Shown one piece after another: positions 10,863 through 28,184 of a stretch of DNA of 64,000 nt. Origin of the DNA: a virus (taxonomy: Duplodnaviria; Caudoviricetes); the IMG/VR virus record IMGVR_UViG_3300024346_000003. One strand, written 5' to 3'. The notes under the pieces were generated by a model. The model saw only the letters and a list, made by a program, of their open reading frames with translations, did not search any database and was not told where the DNA came from. Positions within the stretch are counted from its first letter, which is position 1, and each line of letters opens with the position of its first letter. Made by a program: the position numbers and the translations under genes.

Positions 10863-11501
10863 CTAATTTAAAGAAAATTTAATAAAATTAACACCATTAG
10901 GGTTTTTAATACGTTTTTCTTTAAAAACAGGTTTTAATTTATCTTTAATTGGGTTGGTGAAATTAGGTAATGATTCATTTTCAAACCAAATATTTCCATT
11001 TTCGTCCTCATACGCTGTATTATTTTCCAAAACAGAGAAGCCAAATGCTTTCGCTACAGGACATTCTTCCTCAACCGCAATAGTCAACTCGGATAATTGA
11101 TTTTGAATCAACTGAGGCATGTTAAAATCGATATCAATTGAATACGTTTCATAATCATCGATATTGTAAATTTTAACCTCTGGTGCTCTCAAGTACGTTG
11201 AATCAACCCAGTAAGCTGGATTAGCTTTTAATTCTTCTTCAGTTTCAGTATGTGGTGTAATTTTAACACCAAATATGAAGAATGATTTAGGTAAGTTGGA
11301 AATACCAACACCTTTTTGAATATTACCACCAGCCCATTCACCATAAATACTAATAGTGTTATTGTTTCTATTAATATTTTCTTTTTCGGCAACATGTAAC
11401 ATTAAACCATAAAAAATATCCTTATTTGATTCCACAAAGAATGCAAATCCAGCGTTATCGGATGTTTTGATTTCTTTAATATTTTTTATTTTCTTTTCCA
11501 T
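10863..11501 (-). CDS. Rnl2-family RNA ligase, fragment 2 (motifs III, IIIa)
   Basis: DNAGFAFF, IYGEWAGGNIQKGV, FFIFGV, ECPVAKAFG; own TATATTTG promoter near 11515. Confidence 0.8.
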   Translation of the reverse strand: MEKKIKNIKEIKTSDNAGFAFFVESNKDIFYGLMLHVAEKENINRNNNTISIYGEWAGGNIQKGVGISNLPKSFFIFGVKITPHTETEEELKANPAYWVDSTYLRAPEVKIYNIDDYETYSIDIDFNMPQLIQNQLSELTIAVEEECPVAKAFGFSVLENNTAYEDENGNIWFENESLPNFTNPIKDKLKPVFKEKRIKNPNGVNFIKFSLN

Positions 11502-11585
11502 TTTATTTTTTTTTACAAATATACAACTTTTTTTTATCTTTCACAAATTTTATAGATATTTATTAAAAAACGATAAACCAGCATT

Positions 11586-12416
11586 ATGAAAAAACAAAAA
11601 TACCATTACGTTTACAGAATTACTAATAAAGTAACTAAAAAACACTATTATGGTTCTAGAACATCAAAAACAGAACCTAAGTATGATTTAGGTGTAACTT
11701 ATTTTAGTTCTAGTTCTGATAAAGAATTTATTAATGACCAAAAAATAAATACCGAAAATTACAAATATGTAATTGTTAGAATTTTTAATTCTAGGGATGA
11801 GGCTTTATTATTTGAATCACATTTACACACTAAATTTAATGTTGCTAAAAATGATAAATTTTATAATAAATCAAACGTAACAACAACTGGGTTTATTTAC
11901 GGGTTTCTTGGTAAAAAACATAACCCAGAATCACGTAAAAATGCAATCAATAAAAAAGTTAATACTATGAAAACAACTATTAATAATAATGGTGATAATT
12001 TATATAATTTAGCAGCTAAAAAAGGTGATGAAACAAAGCGAAACACTATCACATCTGATGGGTTAAATATACACCAATTAGCAGCTAAAAAATATAAAGA
12101 ACGTTTGGATATCATTAGAGATGGTGAAACAATGTCTACTAGAGATAAATTAAGACAACCTAAAAAAGATAAAACTAATTATCAAAAAGAGTCTGAAACT
12201 ATCCATATATATAATAACAATGATGAATTAATTTACGAAGTTAAAATAAATTTAAGAAAATTTTGTAAACAACATAATTTACCATACACTGAATTATATA
12301 ACTCAAAAAGAAACAATACCAAACTTTACGAAAACATTATCAATAAAAGAGTTATAACCAGATTAACTAATAAAGGTTTTTATAAATATAAAGGTTGGTA
12401 TGCTATAAAACAATGA
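11586..12416 (+). mobile_element. Free-standing GIY-YIG homing endonuclease, antisense to the ligase
   Basis: HYVYRITN...HYYGSR...YFSSS. Confidence 0.85.
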
Positions 12417-12765
12417 TTTCACCTATTTTATATTCACTTATAATTTTACCATTAATAATATCATTTTCATTAAATAACTGTTTTGAACCATCTTCAAATT
12501 CAATTTCAATTAGTTTTGATGGTGATGGTGTAATAATGTTTTCACGAGATTGTGCCCACAAATCATCTTGACTATTATAAGAAACACCAGCATTAGTACC
12601 ATGTAATTTTATAGTACCTTTAAAGGTTAATACTGGTTTAGGTAAATTTGGGTCATAAATTGCCTCACCATTTTCATCTAAACCAACAAAATTGTATCGT
12701 CTATTAACATTAGAAACAACAGTTCTAAATTGCTCAATAGACGGAAATTTAATCATTTTTTTCAT
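12403..12765 (-). CDS. Rnl2-family RNA ligase, fragment 1 (motifs I, Ia)
   Basis: FPSIEQFR, TIKLHGTNAG (adenylated Lys motif), AQSRENIITP, then a 40-aa unrelated tail. Confidence 0.8.
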   Translation of the reverse strand: MKKMIKFPSIEQFRTVVSNVNRRYNFVGLDENGEAIYDPNLPKPVLTFKGTIKLHGTNAGVSYNSQDDLWAQSRENIITPSPSKLIEIEFEDGSKQLFNENDIINGKIISEYKIGEIIVL

Positions 12766-12775
12766 ATTTTTAAAA

Positions 12776-14164
12776 TTAATTTAAACCTTTTGCCATATTT
12801 TCAATTGCCATTATTGATTCCAAAGAATCGCACGTATCTTTATCGTCACGTAGTTGTTTGAACACTGGGTGTAGCAACGCATAGTTACCATTTGAGTCAT
12901 GTGATAATCCAGAACATTTAACTTCAATAATTGTCCCCATCAAAGATTCTTGGTTTTCTGTGATATGTTGCATCAAGCTCTCATTCATACCAGTTGGTCT
13001 CGTAAATAATTTACCATCAGCTGATTCAGCATTTACAGATGAGATTACATGCTCATTTTTACCTGTTCCATAGTTAAAACCAACAATACGTAAATCAACA
13101 TCCATTTCCAACTTCATTTTTATTTGCCAATTTGGTTTACCATCTTTCCATGTACCCTTTATATCTTTAAGAATAGTACCCTCTTGACCAGTAGCTAGTA
13201 TATCTTGGAAATGTGACATAGCTTCATCATATGTGTAAACCATAACCGCATCAACTATTGAAACCATAGATAACCCTTTAGTGTTAATTAAAATACCAGC
13301 TTTATTAGCTCGGTTCAAATAAGGTACATCTGATTTTTTATCGAAATATTCATCAACAGTAATTGTATCCCAAATAGTGTATCTAATCGAGTTCAAAGCT
13401 GTTTCAAAGTTACCATGTTTTTCCTCAAAAGCTGCTAATTTTTTACCATTTTCAACTTCTGTTCTAGAATCTCTCTTACCACAAATATCAATAAGCGATG
13501 CAATGATACCATTAGATTCATAACGAGATACATTATCAATAGTTAACTCACCATTAAATACACAATCATCCAAAGATGATAATTCATCGATAAATTTAGC
13601 TCCAGTAACAATTGTTGGTTCGCCTTGACGACTTTCTAATTCAACTTCACCACCACGAATGATTGCATTACAATAACGACCATCCATTTTAATTTGTGAC
13701 ACACCAACACCACCATTTTCGAATATTTTACGAGCTTTCTTTTCATCAAAAGATACTGCACCCATATAAGGTGTATCTTCAATAAGTCCCTTGATTACTT
13801 TATTCATGTTTGATGTACCCATTCCAATTTTACAATCTTTCTCAATAATTCTCTCAATGATATAAGCATTGTCAGAATCCACACTAGCTAATATGTCACG
13901 TAAGAAATTAAGTGCATCATTACCAGTTACATGTCTATCAATTATGTGTTGTAACTCACTAACCACAAACTCTAATGAATTATTTTGGTCTACGTTTCTA
14001 GTATATTCTGGAAGTTGTTTAATATAAAACTTAACCCTCTTTGAGTTAGCCAAATACAGTACACGTTTCAATAATTCGTTGTCAGCGTATTTTCCTAAAA
14101 TAACCATCTTTTGGTTAGTGCTACTCTCAGCAGCGATTTCATCAAAAATTTGTTTAATGTTCAT
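12776..14164 (-). CDS. ATP-dependent DNA ligase
   Basis: QIKMDGRY motif I, FNGEL, EGTILK, KMKLE, OB-fold C-terminus. Confidence 0.93.
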   Translation of the reverse strand: MNIKQIFDEIAAESSTNQKMVILGKYADNELLKRVLYLANSKRVKFYIKQLPEYTRNVDQNNSLEFVVSELQHIIDRHVTGNDALNFLRDILASVDSDNAYIIERIIEKDCKIGMGTSNMNKVIKGLIEDTPYMGAVSFDEKKARKIFENGGVGVSQIKMDGRYCNAIIRGGEVELESRQGEPTIVTGAKFIDELSSLDDCVFNGELTIDNVSRYESNGIIASLIDICGKRDSRTEVENGKKLAAFEEKHGNFETALNSIRYTIWDTITVDEYFDKKSDVPYLNRANKAGILINTKGLSMVSIVDAVMVYTYDEAMSHFQDILATGQEGTILKDIKGTWKDGKPNWQIKMKLEMDVDLRIVGFNYGTGKNEHVISSVNAESADGKLFTRPTGMNESLMQHITENQESLMGTIIEVKCSGLSHDSNGNYALLHPVFKQLRDDKDTCDSLESIMAIENMAKGLN

Positions 14165-14167
14165 ATC

Positions 14168-14404
14168 TTATTTTTTTACTGGTGGGTGATACATTTTTCT
14201 CATTTTTATAATTATGAGATTTACATAAGCATCATGTTCAGGTGAATTAATAGATGAATATAAAGATTCTTTAATTTGAGTCCAATTATCATCATCCTCA
14301 TCTATAATTTCCATTTTAGCCTTTTCTTCAGCAGCTTTTCTAATAGCTTCAGTACCTTCTCTCATGGCAGCTTCAGCTCTTTCATTTTTCCAATCTTCAC
14401 TCAT
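14168..14404 (-). CDS. Hypothetical protein
   Basis: 78-aa ORF in operon. Confidence 0.65.
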   Translation of the reverse strand: MSEDWKNERAEAAMREGTEAIRKAAEEKAKMEIIDEDDDNWTQIKESLYSSINSPEHDAYVNLIIIKMRKMYHPPVKK

Positions 14405-14406
14405 AA

Positions 14407-14916
14407 TTATACAGTTTCTAATTTGTTAATACCTAATAAAATATCTAAGTGTTCCCACATTGCTTTACCATCTGCTGGTGTGTTTAAGTATAATGCACCT
14501 TTAAATTCTTGATATTCTTTCAAGTACATATCCACTTTACCACCATGTTGTATGTTAGCGATTCTATCAGCTAATTTTAAAATAATAGCATCTGGGTTAC
14601 TAGCTGTTTTAGGTAGTGTTTTCTCTTTTTTCTCTTTTCTAATACGACCTTGTTCATCGGTAACACAATATACCATTTCAGCCACTTCTTCCCCAAAATG
14701 TTTTTTAATTTTGTTAAACGATAACCCGTTATCTTCCATTGTGTCATGTAGGTATCCAGCAACAATGTATTTTCCAGAGAATCCAAATCTTTTCAATACA
14801 TCAACAACATCATCAAGGTGTTTCTCATATGGAAAAATATCATCATAAGATTGGTTAGAGTGTGCTTTCACAGCTACCATTCTTGCTTCTTTGTAAGTTT
14901 TGTCTGTATAGTCCAT
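14407..14916 (-). CDS. HD-domain hydrolase, SpoT/Mesh1-like small alarmone hydrolase family
   Basis: AH...PYEKHL, AGYLHDTMED, VTDE, KLADRIAN. Confidence 0.85.
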   Translation of the reverse strand: MDYTDKTYKEARMVAVKAHSNQSYDDIFPYEKHLDDVVDVLKRFGFSGKYIVAGYLHDTMEDNGLSFNKIKKHFGEEVAEMVYCVTDEQGRIRKEKKEKTLPKTASNPDAIILKLADRIANIQHGGKVDMYLKEYQEFKGALYLNTPADGKAMWEHLDILLGINKLETV

Positions 14917-14918
14917 AT

Positions 14919-15353
14919 TTAATAATTTGTTTGCATTTTATGAATAATTAATTCACCTTCTTTATCATTTCTAACATCTAATTTTAGATAAGGTCTGTCA
15001 AATTGTAAATCATGGTCATATTCATCAATAACATTTGTATAAAAATCATCATGACCCATAAGTATGGGTCTACGTCTTCCTTTACCTAAAACACCTTTTT
15101 TAGTTAGAAATAAGTTTTCTTCAATAAGAGCTGGTAATCTATCTTCTAGATTAAGTATATCATTAACAAATGCTGCCCTTAAATTTATGAATTCTTCTTC
15201 GGTTGGTGCATCTTCATGTAGTTCACCCTTTCCACCACTCGTTCTATGGTTGTCCACGTAATTTTCTCTATTATATGGGATGTTATTAACTTCATTTGCT
15301 AAAGCCTCTAAATCATAACTTACAGTTATTCCTAATACATTAATTGTTTTCAT
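14919..15353 (-). CDS. Hypothetical protein
   Basis: 144-aa ORF with upstream TATATTTG promoter. Confidence 0.75.
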   Translation of the reverse strand: MKTINVLGITVSYDLEALANEVNNIPYNRENYVDNHRTSGGKGELHEDAPTEEEFINLRAAFVNDILNLEDRLPALIEENLFLTKKGVLGKGRRRPILMGHDDFYTNVIDEYDHDLQFDRPYLKLDVRNDKEGELIIHKMQTNY

Positions 15354-15411
15354 ATTACAAATATACGAATAATATTTTAATTAAACAAATTTCCTGATTC
15401 TTTTGTCATAA

Positions 15412-16530
15412 TTATAACATTTTATATAACAATTTATCATCGTAGTTTAACATATATTCATTTACTGATGTTATTTTACCATCAACTAACCCAAAGCACA
15501 TCCCTGTGAAAGGTTTTAAATCATATTTATCACATAACTCAAATACCTTAGCAGCATATCTCTTTTTTTCAGACGCTATTATACTCTTAGGTTTATGTAG
15601 CTTCAATTCTTCCCACAAAAACTTTAATCTATTAACCAAATCATCATAACCATCTTTTAATCTCAATAATTCATCCTTTCTATCTGGGAAAGTTGAAATA
15701 AATTCATCGATTTCATTAGTTTTAACAATTACCATAATATTGTGTTCAGCAGTTTTACCTTTTAAGTGGTGAACGGCCAGGTAGGCTGGGTTCTTAATTT
15801 TAACTCTATTATCATCAGCATCTATAACCACATAACCTTCTTCAGACCATGGCATGTTTTCAAAGGTCTTAATTAGAACGCCAGCATTCTTAGCATTTAA
15901 GTCATAAGATTTAACTAATGGTATTCCTAATGATACCGAAACCATAAATAAATCATTGTATGGTATTTCTTTTAATGTTAATCTATTTCTAACAGCTAAT
16001 AATTTAGATGATGATTCACCATGTGGTGTAACAACAATATTATATGGTGTTGTTAATTCAAATACATAAACATGGTCCTTATCTAATAAACAAGTGTTAA
16101 ATGAATACTTTGAAATAACAGTATCCCAAAATAATTCATTAAATGTAGTACCATATTTATTATTCACTTCACCTTCACCCTCAGCAGTACCTGTAGTTGC
16201 CGCAAACCAAATTTCTTTATGCCAATCCCAATAAACTTGAATCATTGTACCATCTTCTTTATTAAGAACATGTGCAGTGTCCCAGTTTATTTTAGCCGCA
16301 TGACCTTCAGCATTATTAAAAAACTTTCTAAATGCTAATGACATAACTTTTAAAGTATCTTTTTCAAGGATAAGACCTCTACAATCCTTAACTTCTTCTA
16401 AGGACATATTAGACTCTATTTGATTGTATTTTAAAAGAATCTTATTTTCATATTCTTTTACAATCAACTTAAATTCTGAAACAGCTTTTTTAAGCCCATT
16501 TTTCTTTATGTATTCTACTATTGCTAACAT
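15412..16530 (-). CDS. T4 Rnl1-like RNA ligase
   Basis: CRGLIL...AFRKFFN, KEDGT motif I, FEL, EGYVV, VKIK. Confidence 0.88.
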   Translation of the reverse strand: MLAIVEYIKKNGLKKAVSEFKLIVKEYENKILLKYNQIESNMSLEEVKDCRGLILEKDTLKVMSLAFRKFFNNAEGHAAKINWDTAHVLNKEDGTMIQVYWDWHKEIWFAATTGTAEGEGEVNNKYGTTFNELFWDTVISKYSFNTCLLDKDHVYVFELTTPYNIVVTPHGESSSKLLAVRNRLTLKEIPYNDLFMVSVSLGIPLVKSYDLNAKNAGVLIKTFENMPWSEEGYVVIDADDNRVKIKNPAYLAVHHLKGKTAEHNIMVIVKTNEIDEFISTFPDRKDELLRLKDGYDDLVNRLKFLWEELKLHKPKSIIASEKKRYAAKVFELCDKYDLKPFTGMCFGLVDGKITSVNEYMLNYDDKLLYKML

Positions 16531-16560
16531 ACTTTAATTATTTATTGGCAAATATACATA

Positions 16561-16593
16561 AAAAAAAGGTAACCACCAAATGATTACCTTTTT
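16561..16593 (-). terminator. Intrinsic terminator
   Basis: AAGGTAA/TTACCTT stem flanked by A and T runs. Confidence 0.65.
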
Positions 16594-16612
16594 ATTTTCA
16601 ATTTATTTTTAA

Positions 16613-17701
16613 TTATCTATAAACTCTTTCATGTGTACCATCAGTATAATGAACAATTAAATTACCTTTAACCTCATCATTTACAATTTGACCTAATAAA
16701 TTCGTAAAGTATAATACTATTTTTGTTTTACCAAGATTGTTAAGACTTATTGTTTTAAAAGTTTCTGATTGACCGTCAATATCTACTTGGGTTAATCTAT
16801 AATAATTAATTGCCGCTTCATAAGTGAAGTCTCTGAAGCTATAATCAATTTTAGATGTGGAATTACCAGCACCGTTCTGATTGTTGACTACAGACCAATT
16901 AAATCCATCTGTGGAACGTTCTACTAAATAATAATCATTATTATGTTCAGATGCACTAGACCAGGTTATTAAATTATAAGTATTTTGGTTAGTAGCATCA
17001 AAATTAATCAATTCAATAGGTAATGAATATACTCGAATCAATTCAAAATTATCAAACCACCATTCTTCACCAGCTGAATTAGTTCGTGTAGGTATTCTAA
17101 ATGCTAACTGTGTTACCCCCATTGGTAAAGTTAATTCGATTATAGAATAACCGTCACCAGTGGATGTTCTATCCCCACCAGCAGTCGGTGCGTATGTTGT
17201 TAGTGTTCCATTTGCAGTTTTTGAGGCAGTAGCATTAGTATTATAATTCCATACAGCATTACCAAAACCAGTTATTCTCATTTCAGTAATATATGCAGTT
17301 GCACCATTATTTGAACTATATTGAACATCAAAATAATCTGGACCATCATTTCCAGCAGTGGCGGCTAAGGGTGATGAAAATTTATAAGCTCCAGCTCTAA
17401 ATTTAAGCATATAGGATGATGTAGCACTTAAACCTGTAATGTTACTTAAAATATATGTACCAGATTCAATACCAGAACCCCCATTACCTGAACCAATTAA
17501 TACAGCACTCGAATTTGATGATACAAATGCATTTATATAGTAACCACATGGTCCACAACCAACTGACCAACCAGCCCCTCCAGTACCCCAACTAGTAGTT
17601 TCAATATAATCATAAGCTATTACTGTTTGACTATATGATAATGTATTTAATAATACAAATAATGATAATAATAATCTTTTCATAAGTTTGTGTTTTATCA
17701 T
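16613..17701 (-). CDS. Secreted Bacteroidota-type protein with LPIEL Ig-like domain and CTD-like tail (likely start 17683)
   Basis: Signal peptide MKRLLLSLF..., LPIELINFDA...WSSASEHNNDYYLVERS...YYRLTQVDIDG, tail TNLLGQ. Confidence 0.75.
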   Translation of the reverse strand: MIKHKLMKRLLLSLFVLLNTLSYSQTVIAYDYIETTSWGTGGAGWSVGCGPCGYYINAFVSSNSSAVLIGSGNGGSGIESGTYILSNITGLSATSSYMLKFRAGAYKFSSPLAATAGNDGPDYFDVQYSSNNGATAYITEMRITGFGNAVWNYNTNATASKTANGTLTTYAPTAGGDRTSTGDGYSIIELTLPMGVTQLAFRIPTRTNSAGEEWWFDNFELIRVYSLPIELINFDATNQNTYNLITWSSASEHNNDYYLVERSTDGFNWSVVNNQNGAGNSTSKIDYSFRDFTYEAAINYYRLTQVDIDGQSETFKTISLNNLGKTKIVLYFTNLLGQIVNDEVKGNLIVHYTDGTHERVYR

Positions 17702-17732
17702 AAATATAACACAAACTCACAAAAAATAAATA

Positions 17733-18032
17733 CTATTTATTCCTATCTTTTAAAGTTTTTATTAATTTTTCAAGTTCTGAAAAACTTAAATCACCAAGTA
17801 ATCCCATTATTTCACTTTCTTCCATCATTTTCTTAGCGGCTATCATACTGCACATTTCAGAAAATACATGCATATCATTTTCATCATATATTAATGAGCT
17901 AATAAAGATTATAAAATTACCAATAGTGCTAATTACATAATCTTGTTTATCTTCACCTTCCATTATCAAGGCTTCACCTATCTTTAGTAGTTTAATAGAT
18001 AACTCATCATATCTTTCCATATTATCTTCCAT
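17733..18032 (-). CDS. Hypothetical protein
   Basis: 99-aa ORF. Confidence 0.7.
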   Translation of the reverse strand: MEDNMERYDELSIKLLKIGEALIMEGEDKQDYVISTIGNFIIFISSLIYDENDMHVFSEMCSMIAAKKMMEESEIMGLLGDLSFSELEKLIKTLKDRNK

Positions 18033-18065
18033 CGATTCTTTTTTGTAAAAATATGAGTTTTTTTA

Positions 18066-18542
18066 TTAATCGACAACAAACCAATCAGGTTTTTTTCTAT
18101 TTTTCCAGTCAGCTAAGCTTTTTTTATGTGTCATATAGTATAATCTATATGAATCAACAACTGAATCGATTTTACAATCATCTGGCATGGCCATAGCAAA
18201 GTTTGTTATATCACCATTGGTTGGTATATTTGGTGTGTTTATCAAGCACCATTCAATAACATCCTGAGATTTATGCCTCTTACCATAACGATATGTATAT
18301 TCCTCACATAATGACATACCCAAATCACACAACCAAATATAATTTTCAATACACTCTCTGGTCCAAATTGAACATGGGTGATTTTTATGTGATAACTTAT
18401 ACGGTATTAGATATTGACTATCAGTTACGTGATGAACACCACATAATAATTGAGCCGTTTCCAATATCATTTTAACCACATGTTTATTATTGTGCATTTG
18501 CGCAGCAACTTGTGGATTTTCATCTAGAACAAAAATATTCAT
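18066..18542 (-). CDS. denV: Pyrimidine-dimer DNA glycosylase (endonuclease V-like)
   Basis: MNIF.LD...KHVVKMILETAQLL...HKNHPC..W. Confidence 0.85.
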   Translation of the reverse strand: MNIFVLDENPQVAAQMHNNKHVVKMILETAQLLCGVHHVTDSQYLIPYKLSHKNHPCSIWTRECIENYIWLCDLGMSLCEEYTYRYGKRHKSQDVIEWCLINTPNIPTNGDITNFAMAMPDDCKIDSVVDSYRLYYMTHKKSLADWKNRKKPDWFVVD

Positions 18543-18544
18543 AG

Positions 18545-19507
18545 TTATTTCTTTATTTCAGTAACTTTTCCAATAACGTTGAATGGTTTTATTTTTCTCC
18601 ATTCAGTAATATCATTACTCATAACAACTTTACCACCATTTGGGTTAACAGCTATTGTGATGTGTGGTGTTGCATTTTTAGTTGGGTATCCTTCAACTTT
18701 AACAGCCATAGCCATATCAGATAACCCCAATTCCGTAACTTTAAGTGTTATATCTTTACCCAAATCTTCTTTGTTCGGTACTGGTTTACCAAATACAATT
18801 GTCATATGATGTGCGATTATACTCCAACCGTCTGGAATTTCATTTTCAACTATAGATAATAGTGAACTTCTAGAACCACTATCTAATACAACAGCAGAAT
18901 ATAATACATCAGATTCTTTATACATATCTTTTGAACCCATAACACTAGCAACACTTAATGGGCCTTGACCAGCGTGACTAGCTATCATTGATTCAATCTT
19001 TTCCAATGGAACACCATGAGTATTCCTATCAGCTAATTCTTGTGCTGATAACCCACCAGTACCAATATCAACAAATTGAATGTTCTTATCATCCAACCCT
19101 AAATCCAATGCTGATTTAACTGCAACTTTAGATTCGTTTTGTTTAATATTTGTATTGTCTAAGATAACTGGTGATACACCACTTTTTAATGAATTGGTAA
19201 GATTTGTAAGATTTGTTGAATGTGCTTTAGATAAAGGACTAAAGTCTTTAGTTGTAATCATCTTTTCGAAGAATTCCCTGTAATCACCTTGGGCTTCAAT
19301 AACATCATCAGTTGAATGAATAACACCATCAGTACCAGCCAATTCTTTTGCTTTTGTTGATTTACCAGAACCTGGAATCCCCCTCATTACAATAAGTACT
19401 TGGTCTGGTCTAGTAATGGTTACACCTAATGAATTTTTAAGCGTACCTTCTCTTAATATAGATTTAATTTTATCTTTCATACCACAAAGATATAAAATAT
19501 ATTCCAA
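18545..19507 (-). CDS. Polynucleotide kinase fused to 2H cyclic phosphodiesterase (RNA end-healing enzyme)
   Basis: GIPGSGKST P-loop, ILDNTN, RNTHGVP; AHHMTI and PHITIA. Confidence 0.85.
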   Translation of the reverse strand: MEYILYLCGMKDKIKSILREGTLKNSLGVTITRPDQVLIVMRGIPGSGKSTKAKELAGTDGVIHSTDDVIEAQGDYREFFEKMITTKDFSPLSKAHSTNLTNLTNSLKSGVSPVILDNTNIKQNESKVAVKSALDLGLDDKNIQFVDIGTGGLSAQELADRNTHGVPLEKIESMIASHAGQGPLSVASVMGSKDMYKESDVLYSAVVLDSGSRSSLLSIVENEIPDGWSIIAHHMTIVFGKPVPNKEDLGKDITLKVTELGLSDMAMAVKVEGYPTKNATPHITIAVNPNGGKVVMSNDITEWRKIKPFNVIGKVTEIKK

Positions 19508-19517
19508 TATAACAAAT

Positions 19518-19895
19518 TTATTTTTTAGGTTTTGTTTTTAACTTAATAAGTTTCTTTTTTACTATTGGTTTCTTTTTAACTTTTTTCTTAATTTTAGCCT
19601 TTCTAGTAAACCCACCAATACCACCAACTTTTAAATTCATACACTTACCATTTTTGACTTTTGATAGTGTGACAATTGCTTTTTCTCTTTCAGCTAATAA
19701 TTCTCTATTCTCAACTATTTCTAAAATCTCAACTCTATGTTTTTCTTTACCATATCTTTTTATTGAAAATTTTATCGCTTTACCAGAACCCATATAACCA
19801 TCTTCCAGATTATCGGTTGAATGCATACCAATATAATATTTGTTATTAACTAAACAAGTAGTTTTATATATGATATGATATTTTTTTTCATTCAA
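19518..19895 (-). mobile_element. Short Seg-like GIY-YIG endonuclease (possibly truncated)
   Basis: IIYKTTCLVNNKYYIGMHST...YMGSG. Confidence 0.75.
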
Positions 19896-20775: not shown

Positions 20776-20848
20776 TACCCTCGACTGGATTCGAACCAGT
20801 ATTTTTGGTTTCGTAGACCAATGTTCTAATCCATTGAACTACAAGGGC
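20776..20848 (-). tRNA. trnR: tRNA-Arg(ACG)
   Basis: TTGGT-CTACGAA-ACCAA. Confidence 0.93.
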
Positions 20849-21030
20849 ATATTGTTATAATAAGAGTATAAACTGATATAAAACACACCAACCGTATCGT
20901 ATTTATATTCACCGTTTTTATTTGGTGGTTCAATCGCAACAATAGGATAATTCTCACCTAGTATTTTTTGATATTCCATAAATTGATTGTCCGTCTTTGG
21001 TATTGACATTTTTGTGTATAATAAATCCAT
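20839..21030 (-). CDS. Small hypothetical protein (63 aa) in tRNA array 2
   Basis: Start MDLLYTK at 21030; the track start at 21081 lies inside a tRNA. Confidence 0.55.
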   Translation of the reverse strand: MDLLYTKMSIPKTDNQFMEYQKILGENYPIVAIEPPNKNGEYKYDTVGVFYISLYSYYNNMPL

Positions 21031-21044
21031 AATATTTAAATTAG

Positions 21045-21114
21045 TACCGCCTGTGAGGTTCGAACTCACCTTTCCATCCATATGAGGGATAGTTGTACTC
21101 CACTGACTAGCGGC
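21045..21114 (-). tRNA. tRNA-CAT (Met, Ile2 or fMet), weak D-arm
   Basis: ATCC-CTCATAT-GGAT anticodon arm; canonical T-arm; short irregular D region. Confidence 0.7.
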
Positions 21115-21116
21115 AT

Positions 21117-21227
21117 TTTGGTCGATGTCTAGAATCTTTAACCTCCTTTCTTGGCAAGGTCTCCATCATGGGTTCCGTTGATTGATTCATCTTTATAACC
21201 CCATACGGAACAAGCGGGGTAACCAAA
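21117..21227 (-). ncRNA. Unassigned pseudoknotted structured RNA
   Basis: Closing stem TTTGGTT/GACCAAA; ACCCC/GGGGT hairpin whose loop GTTCCGT pairs with downstream ACGGAAC; further stems. Confidence 0.55.
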
Positions 21228-21235
21228 TTATTTTG

Positions 21236-21309
21236 CTCTTCAGGAGGGATTCGAACCCCCAACCCATCGGTTAACAACCGATTGCTCTGACCATTATAGC
21301 TACCGAAGA
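21236..21309 (-). tRNA. trnN: tRNA-Asn(GTT), second copy
   Basis: ATCGG-TTGTTAA-CCGAT; G73. Confidence 0.93.
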
Positions 21310-21385
21310 ATAAAAAAGTTTAGAGGCTTTGGGTTAGACACGCCTCAATATTACATGAGAGACCCCATAGATTGCATAAACTTTG

Positions 21386-21462
21386 TACAGAAGGTGAGAT
21401 TCGAACTCACATGTGACCAACTACCCTTTCTACAAGATATAAGCTTGAGGGGATACATCTGC
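21386..21462 (-). ncRNA. D-armless tRNA-like RNA with TAT anticodon-position triplet
   Basis: Acceptor GCAGATG/CTTCTGT, canonical T-arm, CAAG-CTTATAT-CTTG arm extended by CCCT/AGGG; no D-arm. Confidence 0.65.
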
Positions 21463-21465
21463 ATT

Positions 21466-21516
21466 TTTATAAGTGGCCAAAACTATGTTTTTTAGTGAGT
21501 TTTGGCCACTTATAAA
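21466..21516. repeat. Perfect inverted repeat (14-bp core, 19 bp with flanks)
   Basis: AAGTGGCCAAAACT ... AGTTTTGGCCACTT. Confidence 0.85.
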
Positions 21517-21519
21517 TTG

Positions 21520-21561
21520 TAGGAAACACGGGACTCGAACCCATAACCTTTCACGTATAAA
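21520..21561 (-). pseudogene. 3' half of interrupted tRNA-Ile(TAT)
   Basis: TTTATAC-GTGAA-AGGTT-ATGGG-TTCGAGT-CCCGT-GTTTCCT-A. Confidence 0.8.
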
Positions 21562-21568
21562 TATTTAG

Positions 21569-21640
21569 TAGGCATGTCGAGATTCGAACTCGAAATACAA
21601 CAGTATCAGTGTTGCGTGATAACCATTTCACTACACGCCT
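21569..21640 (-). tRNA. trnI: tRNA-Ile(GAT)
   Basis: CAACA-CTGATAC-TGTTG; acceptor AGGCGTG/CATGCCT; A73. Confidence 0.88.
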
Positions 21641-22208
21641 ATTTATTTAATTCTTCATGTATTTCTCTATGACAATTTGCGCAGACCATAATACATTTGT
21701 CTAATTCTAGTTTTATCTTTTCCCATGATAACACTGAGTAGGAACCAATTCCAAAATCTTTTTCGTTTGGGTCTAAATGATGAAATTCTAACGCTGAATT
21801 ACATCTATCATACCCACATTTTTGACAACAACCACCTTTATATTCAATAGCTTTTTCTTTTAACTTTTGACGAAAGTTTTTAACTTTTTGATAATTTCTA
21901 ATTTTTAACTCTTCATCGTTTAATTTAACATACTTATTTTCAGTATGTTTAATTATTGTTGATTTACCTAGATTAAATTTAACCATACATTCTTCAATGG
22001 TGTGGTCTTTATAGAAGCTATTTAATTCTTCTATTTCAATCTTTGTTAATTTAGCTCTTTGTTTACTAACAAAATTACCACCTAAATTATTATTGTTGCA
22101 ATGAAATGAAACGGTGCTTTTTGAACAATTCAATAGTTCACTTATTTCATTATAATTTTTACCAGAGTTTCTCAACTCTAGAATACTTTCTTTTAAACTT
22201 GTAGTCAT
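21639..22208 (-). mobile_element. HNH endonuclease with N-terminal HTH
   Basis: CQKCGY...LEFHHLDP...KCIMVCANCHREIH. Confidence 0.9.
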
Positions 22209-22678: not shown

Positions 22679-22689
22679 ATTTTTAAATA

Positions 22690-22784
22690 ATAAGGCTACA
22701 GCCTTATAATGTTATAATATAAGGCTACAGCCTTATAACCTTATAACGTTATAATATAAGGTTATAACCTTATAACGTTATATT
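22690..22784. repeat. Palindromic modular tandem repeat
   Basis: ATAAGGCTACAGCCTTAT twice and CCTTATAACGTTATA twice. Confidence 0.8.
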
Positions 22785-22786
22785 AG

Positions 22787-23426: not shown

Positions 23427-23461
23427 TGCAAATATACTAAAAGTTTTTTTATTTGTCAAGT
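23427..23461 (-). promoter_or_regulatory. Bacteroidota-type promoter of tRNA array 2
   Basis: TTG(ACA)-N20-TATATTTG. Confidence 0.8.
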
Positions 23462-27005: not shown

Positions 27006-28184
27006 TTATATTAGATTTTTGAATTTATCAACCTCAATAGCATTTATCGCTTGACCCACTTCAGGACCATCTTTTTGTAGATTATACTTTTCTTTAGCTT
27101 CTGGTCCAGAGGTCATTGGTAATTTTAAGTATTCCTCAAAGGAATCTAACAATTGTGAACTTATACCCATATTGGCACCAAAGTTTCTTAATTGGTCACT
27201 TGATAATCCAGATTTACCAAATAAAGCTTTTAATTTCGGTGCTGTGTCAATGTTCAAATTAACCATAGCGATTAATGTTGTTATCTTTTTAACTTCATCA
27301 GCACTGTATTTTAACTCATTTAGTTTTTTAGCTAACGGCATTAATTCATTTTTAGATAATAATATCGCAATCAATACAAGTGGGTCATCGTTATCTATAA
27401 ATCTTTTATTTACATTTAAACCTTTAAACACCCAAGAGAATAATTCATATTTATCAATCATCTCAAGAAATTGTTTAGTTGATTTAGCCGATGCTAACCC
27501 TTTAATAAATTCATCTCTAATTCTTTCACCAGAAATACCTTCAAGACTTGCATCTTTCATTAAAGCCGCATCAACTGCTGGGTCTAAATCAGAACCGAAT
27601 CTACCAGCAAATCTAATAGCTCTAAGTATTCTTAATCTATCTTCAGTAAATCTATCTTCTGGCGAACCTACAGTTCTAACAATACCATTTTTAAGGTCAT
27701 TAATACCACCTACTAAGTCAACAACCTCACCAGATTCAATATCGTAGAATAACGCATTAATTGTTAGGTCCCTTCTTTTAACATCACCCTCAATATCAGT
27801 AAATGATACAGCATCTGGTCTTCTACCGCCAGATAAATCTTCCCTGAAAGTGGCCACTTCGTATTCACCTTGGTCAGTAAATACGTTAATTACACCAAAT
27901 GCTTTACCTGTTGGTAATGTTTTTAACCCAGCTTTGGTCATCATATCTTCAACTTTATCTGGAACAGCATCAGTAGCGAGGTCATAATCTTTAGGTGTTT
28001 TACCTAATAATGCATCTCTAACCGCACCACCAACAACATATAATTTATGTCCGTTTTTAACGAATATATCTTTTATTTGTTGAATATCACTAGGTATTGG
28101 GATAGACATTTTAATTCTATCTTCGTTAATAATACCTTCTCTTAATATTTGTTTAATAGTTTGTTTCATAATGCAAATATACAT
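27006..28184 (-). CDS. cca: CCA-adding tRNA nucleotidyltransferase (class II)
   Basis: VGGAVRD..LG..PKDYDLAT, RRDLTINA, EDRLRILRAIRF. Confidence 0.88.
   Translation of the reverse strand: MYICIMKQTIKQILREGIINEDRIKMSIPIPSDIQQIKDIFVKNGHKLYVVGGAVRDALLGKTPKDYDLATDAVPDKVEDMMTKAGLKTLPTGKAFGVINVFTDQGEYEVATFREDLSGGRRPDAVSFTDIEGDVKRRDLTINALFYDIESGEVVDLVGGINDLKNGIVRTVGSPEDRFTEDRLRILRAIRFAGRFGSDLDPAVDAALMKDASLEGISGERIRDEFIKGLASAKSTKQFLEMIDKYELFSWVFKGLNVNKRFIDNDDPLVLIAILLSKNELMPLAKKLNELKYSADEVKKITTLIAMVNLNIDTAPKLKALFGKSGLSSDQLRNFGANMGISSQLLDSFEEYLKLPMTSGPEAKEKYNLQKDGPEVGQAINAIEVDKFKNLI

Follow-up and report, generated by a model that had tools for sequence, protein, structure and literature searches.

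We show by comparative sequence analysis that the minus strand of the window, the whole stretch of 64,000 nucleotides analysed here from the IMG/VR virus record IMGVR_UViG_3300024346_000003, carries at 21227..21117 the gene for a structured RNA of about 107-113 nt, pseudoknotted and non-coding. The family to which this RNA belongs is new to Rfam 15 and to the literature searched, while its kind, a small non-tRNA RNA in a phage tRNA cluster, is already known. The copy in the window is about 111 nt long, with a predicted fold of four parts: a terminal helix, a hairpin with a pseudoknot, an A-rich linker and a bulged stem. Helix A, of 5-7 bp across the family, joins both ends of the RNA; the loop of the 5-bp hairpin B pairs with a strand in the next domain, giving a 7-bp H-type pseudoknot; and the bulged 3+5-bp stem D encloses the pseudoknot 3' strand, the conserved CCAUGAUGG stretch and the small hairpin F. 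In the window these parts are placed as follows, from the 5' to the 3' end of the RNA.

21221..21227, minus strand: 5' strand of helix A, UUUGGUU, partner 21117-21123; 7/7 pairs covary, and the inner 4-5 pairs are paired in about 100%.
21216..21220, minus strand: 5' strand of hairpin B, ACCCC, which is stem 1 of the pseudoknot; partner 21198-21202; 97.9% paired, 4/5 pairs covary.
21203..21215, minus strand: loop of hairpin B, 13 nt, GCUU + GUUCCGU + AU; the pseudoknot 5' strand is 21205-21211.
21198..21202, minus strand: 3' strand of hairpin B, GGGGU, partner 21216-21220.
21192..21197, minus strand: A-rich linker UAUAAA, loop 3 of the H-type pseudoknot; UAUAAA or UGUAAA, nearly invariant in all 38 family members.
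21184..21191, minus strand: 5' strand of stem D, outer GAU (21189-21191) and inner GAAUC (21184-21188); 3/3 outer and 4/5 inner pairs covary.
21179..21183, minus strand: junction AAUCA, unpaired and conserved, consensus RRUHA.
21172..21178, minus strand: pseudoknot 3' strand ACGGAAC, partner 21205-21211; 100% paired over 266 cells.
21163..21171, minus strand: CCAUGAUGG stretch, a possible 2-3-bp mini-hairpin or else, with AUGG, an unpaired functional site; CC...UGG is nearly invariant, with no covariation.
21141..21160, minus strand: hairpin F, ACCU/AGGU, with the conserved loop GCCAAGAAAGG; 3/4 pairs covary.
21137..21140, minus strand: junction UAAA, A-rich and conserved, 3-5 nt in the family (UAAA, AAA, GAAA, GAGA).
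21124..21136, minus strand: 3' strand of stem D, inner GAUUC (21132-21136), 5-nt bulge UAGAC (21127-21131) and outer AUC (21124-21126); partner 21184..21191.
21117..21123, minus strand: 3' strand of helix A, GACCAAA, partner 21221-21227; the next tRNA-like gene begins within 1-2 nt.

The helices vary in sequence across the family and the core hardly does. Hairpin B shows double changes such as ACCAC/GUGGU and ACGCU/AGCGU; inner stem D, fixed as GAAUC/GAUUC in the first of two subfamilies, reads AUAUC/GAUAU, ACAUC/GAUGU or UCUC/GAGA in the second; and hairpin F occurs as ACCU/AGGU, GUCU/AGAC or CCUAU/AUAGG, with the loop motif CC-R-A-R-A-A-A in most variants. The bulge of stem D opens on a conserved UA in the members of subfamily 1; in those of subfamily 2 it is UGUAA(CA). 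Conversely, the loop GUUCCGU is fixed throughout, with the sole exception of the phage sequence LR756504.1, which has AUUCCGU together with the partner ACGGAGU. Nearly invariant nucleotides number about 60, many of them unpaired. The loops of the pseudoknot (4 nt, 2 nt and the A-rich third loop UAUAAA) match classical H-type geometry, and the linker may run along the minor groove of stem 1, an arrangement that its location and composition fit.

All the complementary segments that the initial annotation had pointed out on the minus strand are present in the sequence. Its closing helix TTTGGTT/GACCAAA (21227-21221 / 21123-21117), its hairpin ACCCC/GGGGT (21220-21216 / 21202-21198) and its hairpin ACCT/AGGT correspond to helix A, hairpin B and hairpin F and are borne out by the covariation listed above, and the loop GTTCCGT (21211-21205), for which it had noted the perfect complement ACGGAAC (21178-21172), is 100% pairable with it in the family. 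The pairing proposed between GATG-AATC and GATTC..CATC needed redrawing: the stem is present, but it is better described as an outer 3-bp GAU/AUC and an inner 5-bp GAAUC/GAUUC separated by a 5-nt bulge on the 3' side. From the hairpin CCAT/ATGG only the CC/GG pairing is kept, with no covariation and with the third pair lost in several variants. The higher G+C content reported for the element also holds, at 0.43, compared with 0.295 in the window as a whole and 0.26-0.37 in the adjacent spacers.

Taken by itself, the window sequence gives little reason to expect this fold. Its minimum free energy (MFE) z-score is -0.63, which is not beyond chance; a 7-mer with a perfect downstream complement is present in 20% of shuffles; and the proposed nested fold reaches -13.3 kcal/mol, with -8.8 for the pseudoknot duplex, against an MFE of -25.4 for another fold, so that thermodynamic folding by itself does not favour the proposed model over the MFE fold. 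We regard the features of the element as real because they are conserved across homologs, and not on the strength of single-sequence statistics. Among 38 distinct family members, 93.8% of cells form standard pairs and 22 of the 31 pairs show changes on both sides. None of 500 shuffles matched the paired percentage, the counts of double-change pairs or cells, or the covariation score, and only 1/500 matched the number of pair types; when partners were slid by 1-3 columns as a control, only 33-53% were paired. The 38-sequence alignment was fitted to a covariance model and is somewhat biased toward structure, and plain MAFFT alignments already showed the same helices.

The pairs with changes on both sides are spread over helix A (7/7), hairpin B (4/5), outer stem D (3/3), inner stem D (4/5) and hairpin F (3/4), and include 1/7 pairs of the pseudoknot. 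There, GUUCCGU/ACGGAAC is pairable in every sequence and 5/7 pairs never vary; the single double change is the A-U for G-C in LR756504.1, in addition to an alternation of G-C with G-U and of U-A with U-G. The pseudoknot is compatible with the data and geometrically sensible, and its chief support is invariance rather than covariation. G-U pairs are frequent (16 U-G at one pair of hairpin B, 17 at one pair of the pseudoknot), and these would be C-A mismatches on the opposite strand; the RNA is therefore read on the strand of the tRNAs. Length differences of 1-3 nt occur within hairpin F and the bulge, and therefore exclude a coding reading.

Homologs were collected by pattern scans of IMG/VR and of JGI/ENA metagenome contigs, and a covariance model (R1) that we built on 11 sequences confirmed them. 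The 38 distinct members come from viral and metagenome contigs, mostly from lake water, and fall into two subfamilies recovered with independent patterns. Members of subfamily 1 are, among others, the copies in the window, in LR756504.1 and in four complete genomes (288, 288, 430 and 434 kb) that have terminal repeats. LR756504.1, an uncultured phage of 636 kb, was the one relative found by BLAST among GenBank phages; its copy is likewise flanked by a tRNA on each side, and three of its helices contain compensating changes. Subfamily 2, recovered only with a search pattern that left stem D free, occurs in contigs of 5-90 kb whose arrays have up to 15 detected tRNAs; its usual place is between tRNA-His and tRNA-Arg, and it had no match among the GenBank phages. 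With model R1 we found exactly one copy in each of the four complete genomes (288-434 kb), one in a 73%-complete record of 208 kb and one in LR756504.1, and no homolog in Prevotella phage Lak-B1, LR745206.1 or the nearest record, the fragment G001. Four pattern matches in contigs of prokaryote genomes were set aside as chance matches, unconfirmed by R1.

Parts of the array of the window are contained in 22 DNA runs from lake-water and 'marine' samples. In a freshwater RNA library, one contig of 972 nt overlaps 46 nt of the core and then continues, at the contig level, as a subfamily-2 relative. The metagenome contig Ga0102828_1006327 (L066:1998-2115) has a core identical to that of the window, with the 5' strand of helix A swapped for a non-complementary sequence; this copy may be a recombinant junction or an assembly chimera.

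The element sits in a same-strand tRNA array that makes up the surrounding 2.5 kb. Its flanks and the genes of interest around the arrays are the following.

21235..21309, minus strand: tRNA-Asn(GUU), upstream flank, called by ARAGORN and Rfam, 7 nt from helix A.
21044..21117, minus strand: tRNA-like gene with anticodon CAU, downstream flank, called by ARAGORN only, the Rfam tRNA model being silent even at E<=10.
27006-28184, minus strand: CCA-adding enzyme encoded by the window.
18545-19507, minus strand: kinase weakly matching the CPD domain of fungal tRNA ligase; this kinase is also found near the element in 8 other loci.
14407-14916, minus strand: HD-domain protein (HD phosphohydrolase), near the arrays.
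12776-14164, minus strand: ATP-dependent ligase, near the arrays.
10863-11501, minus strand: weak RNA-ligase-like protein, near the arrays.

Among neighbours detected by ARAGORN, the 3' end of the upstream tRNA lies 0-9 nt (mostly 0-4) from helix A, and 2-7 nt separate helix A from the start of the following tRNA. This spacing equals that between tRNAs within the same arrays. Since the identities of the flanking tRNAs vary between phages, the element is an independent unit that occupies a tRNA slot. Upstream of the array lies a strong promoter-like site (23459-23431, minus strand) that matches at 11/12 positions, and within the array there is no minus-strand terminator-like site.

Several other features of the locus deserve mention. 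Enzymes acting on RNA or nucleic-acid ends cluster around the arrays (10863-19507 and 27006-28184, minus strand). An HTH-HNH homing-endonuclease gene (21639-22208, minus strand) lies inside the array and a GIY-YIG gene (19518-19895, minus strand) just beside it (compare segB in T4), and relatives of the GIY-YIG protein are present in 17 loci that carry the element. The T-arm of the CAU tRNA-like gene (21044-21117, minus strand) is normal and its D region odd; in a subset of the relatives, too, this gene comes after the element. An 80-codon ORF (20839-21081, minus strand) spans the gap from this gene to tRNA-Arg, overlapping both; Pfam gave no match for the ORF, and the fetched loci no relatives. 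The window also encodes a phage tmRNA (34898-35273, minus strand; Rfam, 67.7 bits) with the tag peptide ENFLANASIEVVSGEVALA.

Other spacers of the array are structured as well. The 76-nt gap at 21310-21385 (minus strand), between tRNA-Asn and a sub-threshold tRNA (21386-21462, 27.4 bits), resembles a second small pseudoknotted RNA in a tRNA slot: a helix AAAGUUUA/UAAACUUU closes it, an upstream GGGU can pair with the loop ACCC of a hairpin GAGGC/GCCUC, and it is 96-100% conserved in six related loci, one of them with a compensating change from U-A to C-G in the closing helix. At 21463-21567 (minus strand), a perfect 19-bp palindromic hairpin (z -6.5) comes after a 3' fragment of a tRNA with its T-arm (GGGUUCGAGUCCCGU). 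The hairpin looks like an insertion, because in a relative from contigs of other sequencing runs the T-arm piece continues straight into position 21464. Finally, the 108-nt spacer between tRNA-Ser and tRNA-Trp (22679-22786, minus strand) consists of repeated palindromic units (UAUAACGUUAUAAGG...), with a z of -7.3 against shuffles.

From these comparisons we consider, with about as much belief as doubt, that the element is a stable small RNA, cut out of the transcript along with the tRNAs, which would bind in trans to a conserved partner through its invariant pseudoknot core. It would be co-transcribed with the array from the promoter-like site near 23431-23459. The processing of its neighbours would then free it: on its 5' side RNase Z (or trimming) would finish the upstream tRNA at its 3' end, and on its 3' side RNase P would cut at the 5' end of the downstream tRNA. 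Helix A stacked on outer stem D would form about 10 bp with a continuous 3' strand, similar to the acceptor/T-arm stack of a tRNA; such a stack would protect both ends, and the tRNA-processing enzymes may recognise the stack itself. This recognition of the element by RNase P and RNase Z is a conjecture, because the stack, at about 10 bp, falls short of the 12 bp found in a tRNA minihelix, and the element lacks a T-loop. The partner in trans might, speculatively, belong to the machinery of translation or tRNA maturation, as a protein or as an RNA. Among the neighbouring genes we found no specific protein partner, only the homing endonucleases and the kinase with the CPD match recurring near the element. 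Strongly conserved unpaired nucleotides and a pseudoknot are, however, a combination that small ribozymes show just as typically.

A cmscan of the 2.7-kb region and of a 136-nt slice against Rfam 15, at gathering cut-offs and at E<=10, gave only chance-level snoRNA and SECIS matches. In the full-text literature searched the RNA is not described; a phage structured-RNA catalogue (PMC10690425) counts 8,495 IMG/VR candidates, among which this motif may figure. With a fold backed by covariation (38 distinct members, both-side changes at 22/31 pairs), recurrence in many phages and no match in Rfam 15, even at E<=10, or in the literature, two of the checks proposed in the initial annotation, an Rfam search and homolog covariation, favour its suggestion of a new structured RNA. 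Its other remark, that the topology recalls small self-cleaving ribozymes, stands in part: the order of the elements is pistol-like, but the defining features of pistol, hatchet, HDV/theta and hammerhead are absent, and the processing ribozyme that it inferred as an alternative keeps a low probability. We also tried by eye to fit the sequence to the motifs of HDV, hammerhead (CUGAUGA...GAAA), twister, hatchet, group II domain V, SAM-I, 4.5S, 5S and RNase P, and no fit held from one variant to the next.

The likeness to pistol (RF02679), which is also phage-associated, is topological only: a hairpin, a pseudoknot from loop to junction, an A-rich linker, an enclosing stem and an inner hairpin follow in the same order (PMC4604425), and the loop of hairpin B pairs with a strand between stem D and hairpin F in 38/38 members. 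The element is about twice the size of pistol and has in addition the terminal helix and the conserved CCAUGAUGG stretch. The GU junction of pistol between the 3' strands of P3 and P2 is strictly 2 nt and bears the cleavage site (PMC4604425), whereas the corresponding junction of the element, between hairpin F and the 3' strand of stem D, has 3-5 nt; the covariance model of pistol, with its 10 highly conserved nucleotides, has no match at E<=10 in the 2.7 kb or the 136-nt slice, and membership in this class fails. As to HDV-like RNAs, theta ribozymes of phages adjoin tRNAs (PMC10879173). Like them, the element is a small pseudoknotted RNA directly 3' of tRNA genes without an encoded CCA, in phages that encode a CCA-adding enzyme (PMC10879173); it differs in coming mostly from lake water rather than gut and in its variable tRNA spacer of 0-9 nt. 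Theta ribozymes next to tRNAs are expected to cut no more than +/-1 nt (at most 5) away from the tRNA 3' end; in this family helix A begins 0-9 nt downstream of the tRNA. For HDV/theta we looked for a nested double pseudoknot, with P1 starting from the cleavage site at the 5' end, the partner of P1 following the P3 hairpin, P2 closing with the 3' end and a catalytic C in J4/2. In the element the strand at the 5' terminus is paired to the 3' end, the 7-bp pseudoknot originates in a hairpin loop, no placement of P3/P1.1 is consistent across variants and there is no Rfam match, which rejects HDV and theta (RF00094, RF02682). Hatchet, defined by a P1 hairpin at the 5' end, a conserved 3-nt linker to P2 and conserved L2 nucleotides (PMC6561176), was also rejected: the hairpin of the element is enclosed by the terminal helix, its linker is the 6-nt UAUAAA, and RF02678 gives no Rfam match.

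Against this background a self-cleaving or otherwise catalytic RNA with a pistol-like core topology appears unlikely on comparative grounds. It would account for the run of hairpin B, pseudoknot, linker, 5' strand of stem D, 5-nt junction, pseudoknot 3' strand, hairpin F, short junction and 3' strand of stem D in pistol order (PMC4604425), for the many invariant unpaired nucleotides and the sequence-invariant pseudoknot, and there is the precedent of theta ribozymes beside phage tRNAs (PMC10879173); moreover, the CPD-match kinase, the ligases and the CCA-adding enzyme of the window could heal 5'-OH and 2',3'-cyclic-phosphate ends. T4-like tRNA repair, however, would account for these enzymes equally well. 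With the 136-nt slice no ribozyme family of Rfam reaches even E<=10, a 3-5-nt junction takes the place of the strictly 2-nt one that holds the pistol cleavage site, and a terminal helix that joins the ends right beside the flanking tRNAs makes the whole element look like the product. A former of tRNA 3' ends, in turn, must cut at its own 5' edge, as HDV and hatchet do, and here the spacer varies over 0-9 nt. That the element founds a new class of small ribozyme with a pistol-like core, which would mature tRNA precursors with the help of the end-healing and CCA-adding enzymes of the phage, seems to us quite unlikely. We regard as similarly improbable a cis-acting module of the tRNA precursor that is inert once released, be it a 'dummy tRNA' keeping the register of RNase P and RNase Z, an exonuclease block or a setter of processing order or rate. 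The constant tRNA-like spacing between two tRNAs and the acceptor-like helix, free in sequence with 7/7 pairs covarying, would suit such a module, yet it has no need for about 60 nearly invariant nucleotides or for a pseudoknot shared by subfamilies with differing flanking tRNAs; the other tRNAs of the same arrays, moreover, lie 1-7 nt apart without any such module, and each complete genome searched has a single copy.

The 7-nt complementarity might instead act between molecules, forming dimers or rings as in phi29 prohead RNA or the GOLLD and ROOL multimers, which we hold to be very improbable. Loop and complement are invariant rather than covarying, which is also expected if copies must match, and large phage RNAs near tRNAs are reported to form RNA-only complexes (bioRxiv 10.1101/2024.12.08.627333). 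The loop lengths, with 4 nt, 2 nt and a long A-rich loop 3, nevertheless suit an intramolecular H-type knot, and pRNA, GOLLD and ROOL gave no Rfam match; the sole variant of a loop base also changed the partner in the same molecule, which fits both readings. A slimmer chance still, drawn by analogy, is given to a riboregulator that would bind the NCCA 3' end of tRNAs through the invariant UGG-N before hairpin F, modelled on the UGGN bulge of the T-box antiterminator or on the GGU of loop L15 in RNase P. The T-box bulge has the same local arrangement, UGGN and then a hairpin. In the element AUGG is found in 37/38 variants, the next base varies (A, U, C), the hairpin follows directly, and the phage has its own CCA-adding enzyme. 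All this remains resemblance, however, and the GG can pair with the conserved CC seven bases upstream; there is neither a domain like Stem I nor a T-box match in Rfam, and one variant reads AAGG. Barely credible, lastly, is a degenerate tRNA or pseudogene, or a small protein-coding gene. The tRNA slot, the 7-bp terminal helix and the one ORF over the element (56 codons, 21107-21277, overlapping tRNA-Asn) might suggest it. Against a tRNA, the element is called neither by ARAGORN nor by the Rfam tRNA model (RF00005) at E<=10 and has no T-loop (GUUCRANYC) or anticodon arm; against both, it is conserved above the flanking tRNAs, its conservation tracks base pairing and not codons, and indels of 1-3 nt break the frames. 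The covariation pattern already contradicts this reading.

A stable RNA with a partner in trans is the reading that we carry forward. What the element adds is a family supported by covariation, with a highly constrained pseudoknot core and a single copy in each complete genome searched, carried by jumbo phages of 288-636 kb and by shorter phage contigs, uncultured and mostly from lakes. A short RNA with a fold resolved to the base pair makes an easy experimental target. Any function, whether catalytic, as a binder of tRNA ends, as a decoy against host defences that target tRNAs or as a component of a ribonucleoprotein, would inform on the translation-support modules of large phages, and if the RNA were inert after release it would show how tRNA operons tolerate units that are not tRNAs.

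Among known systems, GOLLD (RF02032) and ROOL (RF03087) are likewise pseudoknotted RNAs of phages or prophages, near tRNA genes and of unassigned function; they measure 500-800 nt against the approximately 110 nt of the element, which lies exactly in a tRNA slot. The nearer parallel is phage T4, where species 1 and 2, small stable RNAs of unassigned function, have been known for about fifty years in the tRNA cluster. Species 1 (rnaC, 139 nt) and species 2 (rnaD, 119 nt) are non-tRNA RNAs of similar size inside a phage tRNA cluster, and the element shares with them the position of a non-tRNA RNA gene on the same strand as the tRNAs and a few nt from them. Model R1, run with filters off, has no match on rnaC or rnaD, and rnaC has a canonical T-arm (GGUUCGAAUCC), whereas the element is without a T-arm and has a conserved H-type pseudoknot. 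By analogy, the element might, speculatively, be a functional counterpart of rnaC and rnaD. In the T4 annotation rnaD comes 1 nt after tRNA-Arg and rnaC 6 nt further, with a GIY-YIG homing endonuclease adjacent, and the layout of the window is the same.
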